NCBI GenBank assembly: GCA_040217195.1
Contig: JAVJNR010000004.1
Span: 64,001 to 128,000, forward strand
DNA from: Leptospiraceae bacterium
GTDB taxonomy: Bacteria; Spirochaetota; Leptospiria; Leptospirales; Leptonemataceae
Length of the DNA: 64,000 nucleotides
Direction: 5' to 3'
Part shown: positions 46,661 to 55,097 of the stretch, in pieces
Position numbering within the stretch: position 1 is the first letter of the stretch
Layout of the letters: each line of letters begins with the position of its first letter
Made by a program: the position numbers and the translations under genes
The notes under the pieces: model-generated
Databases searched by the model: none
Seen by the model: only the letters and a program-made list of their open reading frames with translations
Told to the model about the DNA's origin: nothing

Positions 46661-47401
46661 TTAGTTCATTACCTCGGTAATTAATGTATCATCGTATTTC
46701 GAACCTTTGTATACCGATACGATCTCAATTGCAATAAAACTACCGTAAGTGTCCGAGGGCTTATGCCCGGGTAGCTGTATGGATTGCCAGGAATTGGAAT
46801 CCTTTAATTCAAACTCCTTCTGAGTAAGTACCTTCCAGTCACTGTAGAGCAGTCCCATCTGTGTTACATCACCTTTATGAGGACTGATAGCATAGACACG
46901 AATCTTTCTGGGCCGATTGTTGGCTTTGAACAGTGCATCGGTCATAGCAAAGCCAGGCCGAATTCGTATGGACTGCCTGGAATCCTCCAGCTTTACAATC
47001 AGCACTTCTCCAATGCCAGGGCCTTCCACTCCTTCAGCCCAGGCTGTATCTTCATTCTTATCAAAAGCTCGAAATGCGGCAAACATACAGGTCCAATCAT
47101 GGATATCCATATCGCCATCGAGCTCAACGTCATAATCAGGCATTCTTTCCGGAGGCTTGCCCTCCGCTTTCAGGAAGGAAGTGGCCCAGCGATCGGCATC
47201 GCCGGTAATTCCAAAATGCAATGGCACTCCATCCAGGGATCCTTTCTGTAGCAGAGTCTTTAAACTGGAGTTACCCGTTTCACAGGCCTGCCCCTCGTAG
47301 GCCTGGGCCTGAATGCCGGAGGTTCCCATCAGGCCAGCCAGCACGACCAGAGACAGAAGGGAGCGGCTCGAAAGTCCCCGGGCGGCATAAATCAAACTCA
47401 T
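46661..47401 (-). CDS. Exported protein with discoidin/NADase-type glycan-binding domain
   Basis: Signal peptide; AFDKNEDTAWAEGVEGPGIGE, PGFA..FKANNRPRKI, IEIVSVYKGSKYDDTLITEV. Start set at ATG 47401. Confidence 0.7.
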   Translation of the reverse strand: MSLIYAARGLSSRSLLSLVVLAGLMGTSGIQAQAYEGQACETGNSSLKTLLQKGSLDGVPLHFGITGDADRWATSFLKAEGKPPERMPDYDVELDGDMDIHDWTCMFAAFRAFDKNEDTAWAEGVEGPGIGEVLIVKLEDSRQSIRIRPGFAMTDALFKANNRPRKIRVYAISPHKGDVTQMGLLYSDWKVLTQKEFELKDSNSWQSIQLPGHKPSDTYGSFIAIEIVSVYKGSKYDDTLITEVMN

Positions 47402-47576
47402 CCATCCATTTCGAATAGACCGGATGTGCGGGGCGCTGGCTTTTCTGTAAGTCTTGATTCTAAGGAGCTTCAGGAATCGATTAACTGCGTATGCCATGCA
47501 TTGATAGACGAATTCTACCGGCCAGGGGCAATCATTTTTCGTTGAGTCTTGAGATAGCCTGTGGGCGAATGCAATT

Positions 47577-48566
47577 GTGAAGAGCACTCTGGACTGGACC
47601 TACTGCAAATATGCGAATCGAAACCCATTCTTTCCAGAAGGCTGGGGTGATCCGGAGCTTCTACGGTACCTGTTAAGAAAAGATGTAGGTGTGGTAGAAA
47701 ACCGAAAGGTAAAACCGATTAAGGTTAGCCATGAAATAAAACGCAGAGTACCGGGCGGCACCGCAAAGGAAGGAAGTTTTGAAAGTCCCTATGAGTTTCG
47801 TTGGAAAAGAAAGGAATATCTACCAGACTATGCACGGACGGCTCGGTATCTCTTACTGGAACCGGAGCAGGGTTCCAGCTCCTTAATAATACATTTTGCT
47901 GCCACCGGTGATGAAGGATACTCTCGACGTAGACGTATTGCGCTACCATTATTGAAAAAAGGTATTTCGCAACTCATTCTTGAAAATCCTTACTATGGTA
48001 GTAGACGGCATCCAGAACAGAAAAAGGCCGTTCTACCCACAGTGTTAAGTCTAATGCGAATGTCCCGGGCAGCCCAGGATGAAGGGATGGCTCTGGCACG
48101 GTACTTTCGCAAACAGGGTTATGAGAGAATCATGATGACCGGTATCAGTATGGGCGGTTACGTAGCTGCGGCCGCAGGAAGAGAGCTGAATTTTCCGGTG
48201 CGCATTTGCTGCCTGGTTCCATCCCACAGTGCAGCGCCGGTGTACACCGAGGCTGCGCTGCAAACAGCCTGCGATTGGCCCACACTGTACAGAACCAATC
48301 CACTTCCGGAAGAACATCCACTGCTGGTAATGCGCCGTTTATTTGGTATCTCCGATTTGCATCGCCATAAGGCCAGAAGAAAGAACTTTCAGGCAAGTAT
48401 TATTGGTGGGCGCAAAGATGCCTACATACCGGAGTATTCGGTTGAGATTGTGCATCGCGCTTTACCAGGATCTACTCTGGAATGGATTCGCACAGGCCAT
48501 GTGGGTGCTTTTATTCTGGGTACCGGTCTTTATAGGAGGAGAATGTTAGAATTGATGCAGAACTAG
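47577..48566 (+). CDS. Alpha/beta hydrolase, DUF2048/ABHD18-like
   Basis: FFPEGWG, HFAATGDEG, LENPYYGSR, nucleophile elbow GISMGG, KDAYIP, GHVGA. Confidence 0.8.
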   Translation: MKSTLDWTYCKYANRNPFFPEGWGDPELLRYLLRKDVGVVENRKVKPIKVSHEIKRRVPGGTAKEGSFESPYEFRWKRKEYLPDYARTARYLLLEPEQGSSSLIIHFAATGDEGYSRRRRIALPLLKKGISQLILENPYYGSRRHPEQKKAVLPTVLSLMRMSRAAQDEGMALARYFRKQGYERIMMTGISMGGYVAAAAGRELNFPVRICCLVPSHSAAPVYTEAALQTACDWPTLYRTNPLPEEHPLLVMRRLFGISDLHRHKARRKNFQASIIGGRKDAYIPEYSVEIVHRALPGSTLEWIRTGHVGAFILGTGLYRRRMLELMQN

Positions 48567-50628: not shown

Positions 50629-52494
50629 ATGTCCACTTTACAGTCGGAAACTAAAACCAGTCGAGTAACTACAGCCATTGTTCGATTCGCCGGAGATTCC
50701 GGTGATGGAATGCAGCTGGCAGGAATGCAATTCACCAAAGCCACAGGAATCGCAGGAAACGATCTAATGACCTTTCCCGATTTCCCGGCTGAAATCCGTG
50801 CTCCCCAGGGAACCATGGCCGGAGTATCCGGATTTCAAATTCACTTTGGTAGCGATCATATTCATACTCCCGGAGATCGGGTGGATGTGCTGGTGGCCAT
50901 GAACCCTGCCGCCTTAAAAGCCAACCTCAAGGATCTGCGCCATGGAGGAACCCTCATTGTCAATACCAACGCTTTTGATGAACGGGCTCTTGCAAAGGTG
51001 CAGTATGATTCCAATCCGCTGGAAGATCCCCAGCTTCGCAGTGATTATAACGTGGTGGAAGCTCCCATTTCGGACCTGAACAAAACCGCTCTGGAAGATT
51101 TGAATCTTACGGCCAAAGAGGTGGATCGATCCAAGAATTTTTTTGCTCTGGGCATTACCTTCTGGTTATTCCAGAGAGATATGCAACCTACCATGGACTG
51201 GATTGCCAGTAAATTTCGCAATCATCCCAAGATCCAGCAAGCCAATGAAAGAGTGCTGAAAGCCGGTTATAACTTCGCAGAAACCTGTGAGTTGTTTCAA
51301 AATCGATACGAATTGACCCGTGCCGAATTTGATCCAGGCACCTACAGAAACATTACCGGGAATACGGCGATGGCCATTGGCCTTGCAGCGGCGGCTCACC
51401 TGGCAGATCTACCCATGTTGTATGCAGGCTATCCGATTACTCCTGCATCGGACATCCTCCATGAGATGGCCCGATATAAGAACTATGGAGTAAAGACATT
51501 CCAGGCCGAAGATGAAATCGCCGCTGTATGCGCTGCCATCGGTGCCTCATACGGTGGCACCATTGGAGTCACTGCCTCCTCCGGACCTGGAATCGCACTG
51601 AAGTCAGAAGCCATTAACCTGGCAGTGATGACAGAACTGCCATTGGTCGTCATCAATGTTCAGAGAGCCGGTCCATCCACTGGAATGCCTACCAAGACCG
51701 AGCAGGCAGATCTACTCCAGGTAATGTATGGCAGAAATGGCGAAAGCCCGGTAGCGATTCTGGCTCCATCGCGCCCCTCGGATTGCTTCTCCATAGCCAT
51801 TGAGGCGGTTCGATTGGCTCTTCTCTATATGACTCCGGTATTTATCCTGAGCGATGGCTACCTTGCAAACGGCTCAGAGCCCTGGAAGTTACCTCATCTG
51901 GCTGATCTACCCAAAATCAAAAAGCACTTTGTGCCCGAAGATGCAGATCCGGCCACCTTCCATGCATATGATCGAGATCCAGAAACCCTATCAAGGTTCT
52001 GGCCCGTTCCAGGCAGACCGGGCTTTGAGCATCGTATTGGAGGAATTGAGAAGGATTCCATTACCGGCAACATTAGCTATGATCCGGACAACCACCATAG
52101 AATGGTTGAAATTCGGCATAAAAGAATTGAAGGAATTGCTCAGAGCATTCCAGAACAGGAAGTTTTTGGAGATGAATCCGGAGATGTACTGATGCTTGGT
52201 TGGGGCTCCACCTACGGTTCTATTCGAACAGCCGTAGAGCATATGCGCGACCAGGGACATTCTGTATCCCATGCCCATCTGCAGTATATCAACCCGCTTC
52301 CGCGAAACCTGGAGAGCATTCTACGAAAATTTAAGAAAGTCATAATGCCAGAAATCAATACCGGACAACTGGCCATGATTCTACGTTCCAAATACTTGCT
52401 GGATATAGAACCATTCAGTAAGGTAAGAGGAAGGCCCATTAGCGTGGCGGACCTGGAAGATAAGATTGAAAGCACCATTAAAGGGCTGAGCTAA
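50629..52494 (+). CDS. korA: 2-oxoacid:ferredoxin oxidoreductase, fused gamma-alpha subunit
   Basis: RFAGDSGDGMQ, FPAEIRAP, YPITP, QAEDEIAA, SGPG, QRAGPSTGMPT, GWGST. Confidence 0.93.
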   Translation: MSTLQSETKTSRVTTAIVRFAGDSGDGMQLAGMQFTKATGIAGNDLMTFPDFPAEIRAPQGTMAGVSGFQIHFGSDHIHTPGDRVDVLVAMNPAALKANLKDLRHGGTLIVNTNAFDERALAKVQYDSNPLEDPQLRSDYNVVEAPISDLNKTALEDLNLTAKEVDRSKNFFALGITFWLFQRDMQPTMDWIASKFRNHPKIQQANERVLKAGYNFAETCELFQNRYELTRAEFDPGTYRNITGNTAMAIGLAAAAHLADLPMLYAGYPITPASDILHEMARYKNYGVKTFQAEDEIAAVCAAIGASYGGTIGVTASSGPGIALKSEAINLAVMTELPLVVINVQRAGPSTGMPTKTEQADLLQVMYGRNGESPVAILAPSRPSDCFSIAIEAVRLALLYMTPVFILSDGYLANGSEPWKLPHLADLPKIKKHFVPEDADPATFHAYDRDPETLSRFWPVPGRPGFEHRIGGIEKDSITGNISYDPDNHHRMVEIRHKRIEGIAQSIPEQEVFGDESGDVLMLGWGSTYGSIRTAVEHMRDQGHSVSHAHLQYINPLPRNLESILRKFKKVIMPEINTGQLAMILRSKYLLDIEPFSKVRGRPISVADLEDKIESTIKGLS

Positions 52495-52506
52495 GGAGAA
52501 ATACCA

Positions 52507-53517
52507 GTGAGTAATCCAACTACATTAACAAAAAAAGATTTCACTTCGGACCAGGAAGTCCGCTGGTGCCCTGGCTGCGGTGACTACGCCATTCTTTCTG
52601 CAATTCAGAAAACCATGCCCGAGCTGGGACTGCCCAGAGAAGACATTGTTTTCGTTTCGGGTATTGGCTGTTCCTCTCGGTTTCCTTACTACATGAACAC
52701 CTATGGCTTTCATACAATTCATGGTAGGGCACCGGCCATTGCCAGTGGCCTGAAACTGATGCGACCAGAACTTAGCGTATGGATGATTACCGGCGATGGG
52801 GATGCACTTTCCATCGGTGGAAATCATTTGATCCACATTCTGCGTCGTAATCTGGACATCAATATTCTGCTCTTTAACAATCAGATCTATGGTCTGACCA
52901 AAGGTCAGTACTCCCCTACCAGCAAGGCAGGGACGGTTGCCAAGTCCACACCGGAAGGTTCTCTGGATCATCCATTTTCGGCTCTGTCTCTGGCCATCGG
53001 GGCCGGAGCAACCTTTGCGGCCAGAGTACATGATAAGGACATGAAAATGATGACCGATGTGTTCAAAGCTGCCTACGAACACAAAGGAACCTCATTCGTT
53101 GAAATCTATCAGAATTGCGTAATCTTTAACGATGGAGTTTTCGACGAGTCTGTATCCAAGGATACCCGGCAGGAACATACCATTTATCTGCAGGACAAGA
53201 AGCCCATGCTTTTTGGCCAGGAGCAGGACAAAGGTCTGTTGCTGGAAGGGTATCAGGCCAGGGTAGTTCCTTCAGAGGATGCCACGGATGCAGTAACCAT
53301 CCACGATGCATCCCGGGAAGACCCATCCTTCGCTTTCGCTCTGGCTCAACTTGATCGTCCCCACTTCCCGGTTCCCATGGGCATCCTTCGACAGGTTGAA
53401 AGACCTGTGTATGAGGAGCTGGTTCAGCATCAGGTTGATACAGTCGTGGACAAAAAAGGTAAGGGAGATCTGGAAGCCTTGATACATTCCGGAGATACCT
53501 GGGAAATTAAGAACTAA
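52507..53517 (+). CDS. korB: 2-oxoacid:ferredoxin oxidoreductase, beta subunit
   Basis: WCPGCG, SGIGCSSR, IHGR, TPP motif GDGD...NNQIYGLTKGQ; SD AAGGAG. Confidence 0.95.
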   Translation: MSNPTTLTKKDFTSDQEVRWCPGCGDYAILSAIQKTMPELGLPREDIVFVSGIGCSSRFPYYMNTYGFHTIHGRAPAIASGLKLMRPELSVWMITGDGDALSIGGNHLIHILRRNLDINILLFNNQIYGLTKGQYSPTSKAGTVAKSTPEGSLDHPFSALSLAIGAGATFAARVHDKDMKMMTDVFKAAYEHKGTSFVEIYQNCVIFNDGVFDESVSKDTRQEHTIYLQDKKPMLFGQEQDKGLLLEGYQARVVPSEDATDAVTIHDASREDPSFAFALAQLDRPHFPVPMGILRQVERPVYEELVQHQVDTVVDKKGKGDLEALIHSGDTWEIKN

Positions 53518-53550: not shown

Positions 53551-53666
53551 CCCATTTTTTTTATCTGTGGAGCCCCGCTCTCTGATTTTTTACTATGCAA
53601 GCAAAAGTTGCTTGCTTACTTGCACTGAAATTCGCGCATGCGAAATTCCATTTGGAGGGAGGTGAA

Positions 53667-54083
53667 ATGGAAGATCCGCTCGGTGAACACTACATCATTG
53701 AACTATACGAGTGCAGTCATGAAGTACTGGATAATCTCGAACAGGTTCAAACAACCCTGCTGGATGCAGCAGATATATCGGGAGCTACGATCGTAGATCA
53801 AAGGTTCCACAAATTCAGTCCGCAGGGAGTTTCAGGAGTGGTGGTTATCGCCGAATCCCACCTGAGCATCCACACCTGGCCAGAGCTCGGCTATGCAGCT
53901 CTGGATCTATTTACTTGCAGTAAGGATATGGACATCCAGAAGGCACTGGATCTGCTCAAGCAGGTCTTTAAGCCAGGAGACATGGTCGTTGAATACATTC
54001 AGCGCGGTCTAATGGATCCAACCTATCGCAAGAATCAAAGACTACACCAATACAGGCAGGCCCTGGCGGCCGGTCGACAGTAA
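53667..54083 (+). CDS. speD: S-adenosylmethionine decarboxylase proenzyme (class 1B)
   Basis: LGEHYIIELYEC, FSPQGVSGVVVIAE/SHLSIHTWPELGYAALDLFTC; strong SD GGAGG before ATG 53667. Confidence 0.93.
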   Translation: MEDPLGEHYIIELYECSHEVLDNLEQVQTTLLDAADISGATIVDQRFHKFSPQGVSGVVVIAESHLSIHTWPELGYAALDLFTCSKDMDIQKALDLLKQVFKPGDMVVEYIQRGLMDPTYRKNQRLHQYRQALAAGRQ

Positions 54084-54094
54084 GGAGGGCAGAC

Positions 54095-54997
54095 ATGCTT
54101 GTTGCTACCAAGAAAGTACAATCTCATCTGTCCGATGCTGCCGAAATGCGGCAATCAGCGGTTTCTGGAAGTGGTGTGTTTGCCACAAGGTCCATCAAGA
54201 AAGATGAGCTTGTGGCCCTATGGGGTGGTACCATCTACCGAGAGGATCAACTGGAATCACTTCCTTCCGAGCTTCGTCATTACCTGTTGCAGGTAGACGA
54301 AACTCTATACATTGGCCCGTCCGACCTTGAGAATGTGGACGATTCAGAGTTCTTCAATCATTCCTGCGAACCCAATCTGGGCTTCAAAGGACAGGTGGCC
54401 CTGGTTGCCATGCGAGACATTGAAGCAGGCGAAGAGCTGACTTTCGACTATGCAATGGCCGAAACCTACGATCAGGAATTTTTCTGTGGTTGTGGTTCGG
54501 ATCTGTGTCGAGGTAACATTCGTGGAACGGACCCGCATCTGCCACAACTCCAGAAGCGGTATCAGGGATACTTCAGTTCATGGCTGGAGAAAAAACTGAA
54601 TGTAAAACCAGAAGACCTGGCAGGAAATCTTCAATTCGAAGAAACCGGAGCCTGGGGTCTGGTAACAGCTCTGGATTTGCACGATTGCGACGGAGACACG
54701 ATTCGTAGCCGGGAAAAGATCTACGAGTTCACTATTGAGCTATGCGATCGAATCCAGGTAAAAAGATTTGGTGAGCCTACAATTGTTCATTTTGGCGAAG
54801 ATGAGCGAGTGGCGGGTTACTCTCTGGTTCAGCTAATTGAAACATCTCTGGTAAGCGGTCACTTTGCCAATGCAACGAACCGAGTCTATCTGGATGTGTT
54901 CAGCTGTGCCTGGTACAATCCAACGGAAATTGTTAAGTTTGCGGCGGACTATTTTGGCGCTCGCGACTATAACGTAAATATCTATCTGCGTCACTGA
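54095..54997 (+). CDS. SET/post-SET methyltransferase fused to a SpeD-like pyruvoyl-dependent decarboxylase domain
   Basis: aa ~17-165: GSGVFA, FFNHSCEPN, GEELTFDY, post-SET CGCGSDLCRG. aa ~186-300: WG...DLHDC, GYSLVQLIETSLVSGHF...YLDVFSC. SD AAGGAGG. Confidence 0.85.
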   Translation: MLVATKKVQSHLSDAAEMRQSAVSGSGVFATRSIKKDELVALWGGTIYREDQLESLPSELRHYLLQVDETLYIGPSDLENVDDSEFFNHSCEPNLGFKGQVALVAMRDIEAGEELTFDYAMAETYDQEFFCGCGSDLCRGNIRGTDPHLPQLQKRYQGYFSSWLEKKLNVKPEDLAGNLQFEETGAWGLVTALDLHDCDGDTIRSREKIYEFTIELCDRIQVKRFGEPTIVHFGEDERVAGYSLVQLIETSLVSGHFANATNRVYLDVFSCAWYNPTEIVKFAADYFGARDYNVNIYLRH

Positions 54998-55028: not shown

Positions 55029-55050
55029 GGGCCCTGTTCAGGGCCCTTTT
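55029..55050 (+). terminator. Intrinsic terminator after the speD / SET-SpeD unit
   Basis: GGGCCCTG-TT-CAGGGCCC followed by TTTT. Confidence 0.8.
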
Positions 55051-55097
55051 CATTTTCGATCAGTTCTGTCTTTCATTCAAATTCTGCAATTCTAAGC

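Follow-up and report, generated by a model that had tools for sequence, protein, structure and literature searches.

In Leptospira and its relatives, a common gene joins a SET domain, in one open frame, to a domain that is very probably SpeDC, a pyruvoyl L-ornithine decarboxylase derived from S-adenosylmethionine decarboxylase (AdoMetDC). We analyzed this SET::SpeDC fusion in a 64,000-nt stretch of Leptospiraceae DNA (hereafter the window), following up an earlier note made on its sequence, and in related genomes. The fusion gene most likely supplies putrescine for spermidine synthesis, and it may represent an undescribed bacterial route to polyamine methylation. Databases label the fusion protein of pathogenic Leptospira S-adenosylmethionine decarboxylase.

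A SET domain joined to a pyruvoyl decarboxylase

The earlier note had described a single 300-residue frame without internal stop, holding a complete SET/post-SET domain and a domain of SpeD fold, and these points were borne out. A frame check found the frame open throughout, all named motifs were located (GxG at residues 25–27, NHSCEPN at 88–94, ELTFDY at 114–119 and the post-SET cysteines C131, C133 and C138), and a Pfam scan returned both expected domains, SET at residues 25–119 (PF00856; 62.3 bits, cut-off 22.4) and AdoMet_dc at residues 193–299 (PF02675; 67.5 bits, cut-off 25). In an AlphaFold model built with 32 sequences (mean pLDDT 87.4, pTM 0.62), the N-terminal part resembles SET enzymes in a fold search, residues 185–300 match T. 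maritima AdoMetDC (1vr7; Z 16.4, rmsd 1.8, 111 aligned residues), and the C-terminal domain matches 1tlu with an rmsd of 1.5 and a TM score of 0.86. The helices that close the SET part are also found, in the alignment, in stand-alone SET proteins of bacteria and archaea that are about 50% identical. Residues S243, S251, H256 and C271 stand where the earlier note had placed them, S243 being presumably the counterpart of T. maritima Ser55.

Table 1. Features at the fusion locus (positions in the window)
Feature	Position	Strand	Basis and remarks
speD, canonical class 1b AdoMetDC, 138 aa from ATG	53667..54083	+	TIGR03330; GGAGG site before ATG
Shine-Dalgarno-like AAGGAGG	54082..54088	+	overlaps speD stop codon; 6 nt before fusion ATG
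SET::SpeDC fusion gene	54095..54997	+	300 aa, one open frame
SET core, aa 25–119	54167..54451	+	Pfam PF00856; GxG, NHSCxPN, ELTFDY intact
Post-SET C131, C133, C138 and C-terminal helices	54452..54604	+	alignment; model helices 150–168
Very probable SpeDC pyruvoyl L-ornithine decarboxylase domain, aa 181–300	54635..54994	+	invariant residues, Fig. S5 of PMC10407285, fold match
Ser251 codon, predicted self-cleavage site and pyruvoyl precursor	54845..54847	+	alignment equivalence to D. phosphitoxidans S229
Intrinsic-terminator-like hairpin and T tail	55029..55056	+	after fusion gene; 7 pairs, 6 G-C; consensus match only

The gap between speD and the fusion gene is 11 nt. The longest speD ORF begins at 53595, and we took the ATG behind the GGAGG site as its start. 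An Rfam scan near the operon at 8 loci matched no RNA element, and a promoter scan of the + strand near the operon gave no match. RNA runs yielded only short contigs of this stretch, and the runs that cover it best are marine metagenomes. Before speD, the window encodes the alpha and beta subunits of a 2-oxoacid:ferredoxin oxidoreductase (50629–53517), as do several loci of the same family, probably reflecting synteny only. Elsewhere in the window there is a gene for a protein with an NADase-translocation F5/8 type C domain (46661–47587; PF25302, 67.5 bits).

The C-terminal domain carries the SpeDC signature

SpeDC is an AdoMetDC-derived pyruvoyl L-ornithine decarboxylase defined by Gln, Thr, Phe and Tyr residues, with many homologues in Spirochaetota (Li et al. 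2023, PMC10407285). With the diagnostic positions deduced from the accessible text and Fig. S5 of that paper, Q246, T250, F257, Y265 and Y274, together with the processing set S251, H256 and C271 (Ser, His at +5, Cys at +20), are invariant in 83 aligned fusions, and a check of eight residues found all of them kept in 139 of 140 distinct fusions. The T. maritima residues with which the earlier note had aligned the processing set, S63, H68 and C83, agree with the accessible text of the same paper. Counted by eye, residues 186–300 are identical to the assayed Ca. Omnitrophica SpeDC at 62 of 115 positions (54%) in an ungapped comparison (Fig. S5), with 17 consecutive identical residues around Ser251 (S243–N259).

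Against the AdoMetDC model TIGR03330 (cut-off 75.65 bits), the C-terminal domain of the fusion scores 17.6 bits and has a Thr-Ser site without Pro, whereas the upstream SpeD scores 143.4 bits and has an ESH site with the Pro that is typical of true AdoMetDC (PMC10407285). Since the domain matches the SpeDC signature, its unusual cleavage site is a feature of that family; the earlier note, which called IET/SL diverged, was wrong on this point, as IET/S is the normal SpeDC form. A diverged or dead AdoMetDC is ruled out by the SpeDC residues, the Ca. Omnitrophica match and the near-complete retention among distinct fusions. Thus, the proposed second pyruvoyl decarboxylase making a diamine stands, but its identity changes from a diverged AdoMetDC to what we regard, with high confidence from sequence comparison, as the ornithine decarboxylase SpeDC. 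Self-cleavage at Ser251, as anticipated in the earlier note, is likely, given the invariant SpeDC residues and the fact that mutation of the equivalent S229 in the D. phosphitoxidans enzyme abolished ornithine decarboxylation (PMC10407285); the predicted products are chains of 250 residues (28.2 kDa) and 50 residues (5.8 kDa).

A probable role of the fusion gene in putrescine and spermidine synthesis

speD lies directly upstream of the fusion gene in 56 of 58 loci, a set that includes some genomes twice, the two misses being one contig with a split speD; speE follows directly downstream in 19. In Leptospira, speE adjoins the fusion gene, and in the window's own genome a SpeE scoring over the cut-off is encoded elsewhere. 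A further aminopropyltransferase-like gene of this genome (L002:1285-2238) follows an argH-like gene and scores too low for the SpeE cut-offs; it could serve to extend polyamines beyond spermidine. The same genome (93.7% complete) yielded no agmatinase/arginase-family, AguA or deoxyhypusine-synthase family gene, and LysA is its sole alanine-racemase-fold decarboxylase match. The context is thus that of SpeDC: a second speD homologue in a genome in which no agmatine-to-putrescine route was found.

SpeA was found over its cut-off in none of 156 Leptospirales genomes. A PLP-dependent Orn/Lys/Arg decarboxylase is present in 60 (50 without and 10 with the fusion), and neither enzyme in 21. In the Leptospira-type family, the fusion occurs in 60 genomes and a PLP enzyme in 38, with no genome having both; one genus has exactly one of the two in 41 of 41 genomes, namely the PLP enzyme in 37 and speD with the fusion in 4, although these exclusion counts include related genomes and are not independent. 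All 10 genomes that have both belong to the window's family, and in each an NNMT-family methyltransferase lies beside or is fused to the PLP enzyme, forming a separate module. Given the canonical speD upstream and, apart from this module, the exclusion of PLP decarboxylases, we therefore suggest, with high confidence, that the fusion gene supplies putrescine. It is the probable putrescine source of most spermidine-making Leptospirales, pathogenic Leptospira included.

In the module just mentioned, an NNMT/PNMT-family methyltransferase gene overlaps that of the PLP Orn/Lys/Arg decarboxylase at two loci, one of them in the window's own genome outside the window (L005:735-2952; L273). The methyltransferase scores over the cut-off of the GntF model (77.7 vs 60 bits), and methyltransferase and decarboxylase are adjacent or fused in the 10 genomes.

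Spread and origin of the fusion

Full-length fusions occur in 85 of the 156 genomes, a count without four further copies, of which one is frameshifted, one partial and two strongly degenerate; they are present in 25 of 42 genomes of the window's family and in 60 of 114 of the Leptospira-type family. Named carriers are Leptonema illini, Leptospira interrogans and related species, and by the names borne by its closest homologues the window comes from a Leptospiraceae-type spirochaete. Both Pfam domains are found in 78 of the 120 homologues listed, and a 330-nt contig from another study spans the domain junction without a gap (54324–54653). Because the fusion is full-length in so many genomes, and in view of these homologues and of the junction-crossing contig, an assembly artefact that joined two separate genes, the first failure foreseen in the earlier note, is ruled out.

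A first quick tree split the two Leptospirales families, as if the fusion had arisen independently in each, but one clade was not rejected (p-AU 0.80) in a test on 68 of 90 rows, the remainder being 16 fused rows and 6 that were partial, very distant or on long branches. A tree of the SET domain gave no resolved branching. With a single origin of the Leptospirales fusion not rejected, its 85 genomes count once and not as independent events. One query for viral copies of the fusion returned none.

Either domain can be lost alone. L253 and several other loci read speD-speDC-speE without SET, and one locus reads speD-SET without SpeDC, with the SET domain intact (L254, in a genome 78% complete). 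Together with the loss of SET motifs described below, these losses indicate that SET is a dispensable module, and the family forms a natural series in which SET is intact, degenerate and finally lost.

The SET domain is intact in one family and degenerate in the other

The conserved motifs of SET domains have catalytic roles. GxG, NHxCxPN, ELxxDY and the post-SET cysteines are all present in the window; NH, Cys, DY and the three post-SET cysteines are kept in 70 of 140 distinct fusions, whereas NH, DY and these cysteines are missing from Leptospira-type copies. Leptonema illini (P0022) has the intact form and L. idonii, a saprophyte, the degenerate one. For the window's SET domain, dN/dS against five congeners is 0.03–0.06, similar to that of the decarboxylase and rough with dS near 1; for Leptospira-type SET domains it is 0.04–0.12 (nine pairs), indicating purifying selection. 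On these sequence grounds, the SET domain is probably an enzyme in the window's family and a non-catalytic part in the Leptospira-type family. Transfer of its activity to a Leptospira paralogue was considered and rejected: intact stand-alone SET genes do occur (L245, L246), but genes of this kind are common and no link of theirs to polyamines emerged.

The window's SET domain matches protein lysine methyltransferases best (MLL1: E 2.8e-12, fold Z 13.2), and window Trp43 aligns with a Tyr of MLL1. BurB, a SET-domain methionine S-methyltransferase that acts on free methionine (PMC12542666, PDB 9l4t), matches with E 9.3e-07 and fold Z 10.5 and ranks far below histone methyltransferases (55.5 vs 80.5 bits). 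In contrast, the SET domain of a locus described below, L197, finds BurB first (E 1.8e-28); the window's SET domain is 28% identical to it.

Among the closest stand-alone SET genes, a permease is present in 32 of 78 loci, and the SET gene follows a PotC/YdcV-like permease in 27 of the 56 loci with enough upstream DNA (24 of 33 Anaerolineae-type vs 3 of 23 other loci). On Anaerolineales-type contigs (L098, L137, L147 and others), a YdcSTUV/PotABCD-like ABC transporter operon immediately precedes a stand-alone SET gene.

SET domains and pyruvoyl decarboxylases are paired elsewhere

A profile search covered 1.84 billion representatives, of which the best 150 matches were examined. They include reverse-order fusions with another SET subtype, one bearing SpeDC residues (P0196) and one another SpeD-like domain (P0226), which represent two clusters of 1 and 2 members; a homologue search from P0196 found no further reverse fusion among 47 matches. 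Tandem SET-SET proteins account for 41 of 146 new matches. Three proteins of about 1,400 aa (P0206, P0222, P0283) carry many SET repeats, one of them with a D-Ala-D-Ala ligase-like part.

In a Chitinophagaceae genome, speDC overlaps a stand-alone SET gene of the same subtype as in the reverse fusions, an operon present in 1 of 201 genomes of its family. A gene for a 123-aa small membrane protein overlaps this SET gene (L067:5827-6198); the protein has no Pfam or NCBIfam match and appears small-exporter-like by eye.

In addition, a distinct SpeD-like clade stands beside a BurB-clade SET gene in 15 of 15 loci, in 15 of 401 Spirochaetota genomes (BurB-linked loci: L197:4948-5822, L196, L198, L275-L289); one genome has a second copy without an adjoining SET gene. 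The clade has the Gln and Thr but lacks the SpeDC Phe, and from its sequence it is a candidate for a pyruvoyl decarboxylase that turns S-methylmethionine into DMSP-amine. The earlier note had looked to an architecture search for independent occurrences: the pairing of SET with pyruvoyl decarboxylases does recur in other arrangements, but for the Leptospirales fusion itself a single origin is not rejected.

SpeDC also occurs in GNAT::SpeDC fusions of archaea (a 17-member cluster) and in a SpeDC::SpeE fusion (P0243, P0221). The SpeE encoded at L201:2710-4500 has 596 aa and ends in a SpeD-like part. A general co-occurrence of close SET proteins with SpeDC was rejected: of 121 archaeal genomes sampled, 66 have SpeDC only, 13 SET only and none both. 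Most of 80 SpeDC loci, out of 594, have no SET gene nearby.

Possible roles of the SET domain

We tentatively suggest that the fusion protein is a two-domain enzyme within the spermidine operon, whose SET domain methylates a small amine or amino acid. The C-terminal domain would, very probably in light of its assayed family, cleave itself between Thr250 and Ser251, leave the pyruvoyl group on the 50-residue chain and convert L-ornithine to putrescine; the upstream SpeD would provide decarboxylated SAM, from which SpeE makes spermidine along the established pathway. The SET domain, on the 250-residue chain, would be an active SAM-dependent methyltransferase for a small molecule of this pathway, a step to which we give a chance somewhat short of even. 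Ornithine, putrescine or spermidine would be its likeliest substrate, methylated at the side-chain amine, so that the pathway would branch off to N-methylated polyamines; amine N-methylation, one option of the earlier note, is thus our remaining best guess. In the Leptospira-type family, a SET domain without catalytic motifs would be retained as a structural or regulatory part.

We favor methylation of a small amine or amino acid over protein methylation or regulation because the reverse fusions, the speDC-SET operon and the BurB-linked clade all pair SET with a pyruvoyl decarboxylase. It is also in line with the intact motifs and low dN/dS of the window's SET domain, the fusion of SpeDC with amine-modifying enzymes (GNAT, SpeE), the permeases before stand-alone SET genes and, as a precedent for a SET enzyme acting on a free amino acid, BurB as described in the accessible text. 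However, just half of the distinct fusions keep the SET motifs, SET and SpeDC are each dispensable, and the two do not co-occur in the archaeal sample; the transporter link comes almost entirely from one lineage, the operon and the reverse fusions are rare, the Leptospirales fusion counts once, and histone methyltransferases rank above BurB by sequence and fold. Moreover, judged by titles and the starts of abstracts, no fitting literature on bacterial methylated polyamines was found.

A mainly non-catalytic SET domain, which the earlier note had raised as SAM-pool sensing, is plausible although we think it unlikely for the fusion as a whole; for the degenerate Leptospira-type copies, it is the most likely role. 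Such a domain might bind SAM, SAH, decarboxylated SAM or a polyamine to tune processing or activity of the decarboxylase, stabilize an oligomer or dock SpeD or SpeE. Motif-less copies are indeed kept in 60 genomes under purifying selection, and the accessible literature offers the trypanosome prozyme as a precedent among polyamine enzymes. Another is the AdoMetDC-fold N-domain of human spermine synthase (fold match Z 9.6), which is inactive. However, a pure scaffold would not need the full catalytic set kept in the window's family, an intact SET domain persists beside speD without SpeDC in L254, and unfused SpeDC is active alone (PMC10407285). Slightly less likely still, SET could be an enzyme for protein lysines whose fusion came about because the genes were adjacent or co-regulated; its target would be a protein of the cell, perhaps one of the polyamine enzymes. 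In sequence and fold it is most like protein lysine methyltransferases, characterized prokaryotic SET proteins mostly act on proteins according to the accessible text of PMC10117894, close stand-alone SETs exist without SpeDC, and tandem SET-SET proteins are common; yet this reading does not explain why SET domains of several subtypes have paired repeatedly, in either order, with different pyruvoyl decarboxylases. If SET acts only on an unrelated protein, the finding reduces to a re-annotation.

Improbable, in our estimate, is a route in which SET makes S-methylmethionine and the pyruvoyl domain turns it into DMSP-amine, alone or besides acting on ornithine. Precedents are BurB itself (PMC12542666) and a plant ornithine decarboxylase homologue that switched to S-methylmethionine (PMC11464771), both as given in the accessible texts; a sister SpeD-like clade lies beside BurB-type SETs, the stretch is found in marine metagenomes, and a Gln of the BurB substrate strand aligns with the invariant Q66. 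The window's SET domain is not of the BurB clade, however, and the decarboxylase keeps all SpeDC residues, belongs to a speD/speE operon and replaces PLP decarboxylases. The option that SET aminopropylates an amine or protein lysine with decarboxylated SAM, also listed in the earlier note, found no support and seems to us extremely improbable: speD is a constant neighbor, even of the lone SET in L254, but the genome has both SpeE and a second aminopropyltransferase-like gene, and what points into the substrate channel of SET structures is the methyl group rather than the aminopropyl arm.

Returning to methylation of a small amine, one may generalize, though with more doubt than for the window's protein itself: bacteria might N-methylate ornithine or polyamines by means of SET domains, a repeatedly evolved module of pyruvoyl decarboxylase and SET might make methylated amines (DMSP-amine in the BurB-linked clade and N-methyl-polyamines in the Leptospirales fusion), and the Leptospira SET domain might be a pseudoenzyme regulator of putrescine supply.

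Comparison with known systems

Both domains are of known kinds; their combination and the SET substrate are undescribed in the literature searched. As to whether the architecture had already been characterized, a point raised in the earlier note, no description of SET::SpeDC was found in that literature, which consisted largely of non-subscription papers, and term searches found no mention of it in PMC10407285, PMC3980110, PMC10117894 or PMC13625781; in the text searched, the first of these names neither SET domains nor Leptospira or Leptonema.

The window's protein shares with SpeDC, as described in the accessible text of PMC10407285, the fold, the Ser/His/Cys set, the four diagnostic residues and the speD-speDC-speE context, but differs by its N-terminal SET domain; that text reports no assay of such a protein. 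The SpeD-SpeDC fusions described there likewise carry SpeDC at the C-terminus, where it is processed and active; their N-terminal partner is SpeD, whereas the window encodes SpeD in a gene of its own and has SET between SpeD and SpeDC. Protein lysine SET methyltransferases (MLL1, ASH1L; NUE, RomA, Go1-SET) have the same SET/post-SET motifs and fold, but the window's protein differs in that it lacks a pre-SET region and is joined to a metabolic enzyme. According to its accessible description, BurB is also a small bacterial SET and post-SET protein, with a free amino acid as substrate and a decarboxylase acting at a later step; it belongs to another SET clade, however, and its decarboxylase is not a pyruvoyl enzyme.

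A further parallel comes from diatoms, in which fusions of AdoMetDC with an aminopropyltransferase and, in some, a histone methyltransferase domain were described (Michael 2011, as cited in reviews PMC3820600 and PMC6356823; the accessible part of PMC4023394 adds nothing further on them). Like the window's protein, these combine a SET-type domain with polyamine enzymes, and they were proposed to N-methylate polyamines and are uncharacterized as far as these reviews tell. Unlike it, they are eukaryotic and contain AdoMetDC and an aminopropyltransferase but no ornithine decarboxylase. As a small and expressible bacterial protein, the fusion presented here could serve to test the idea of polyamine methylation by SET domains, proposed for diatoms in 2011.
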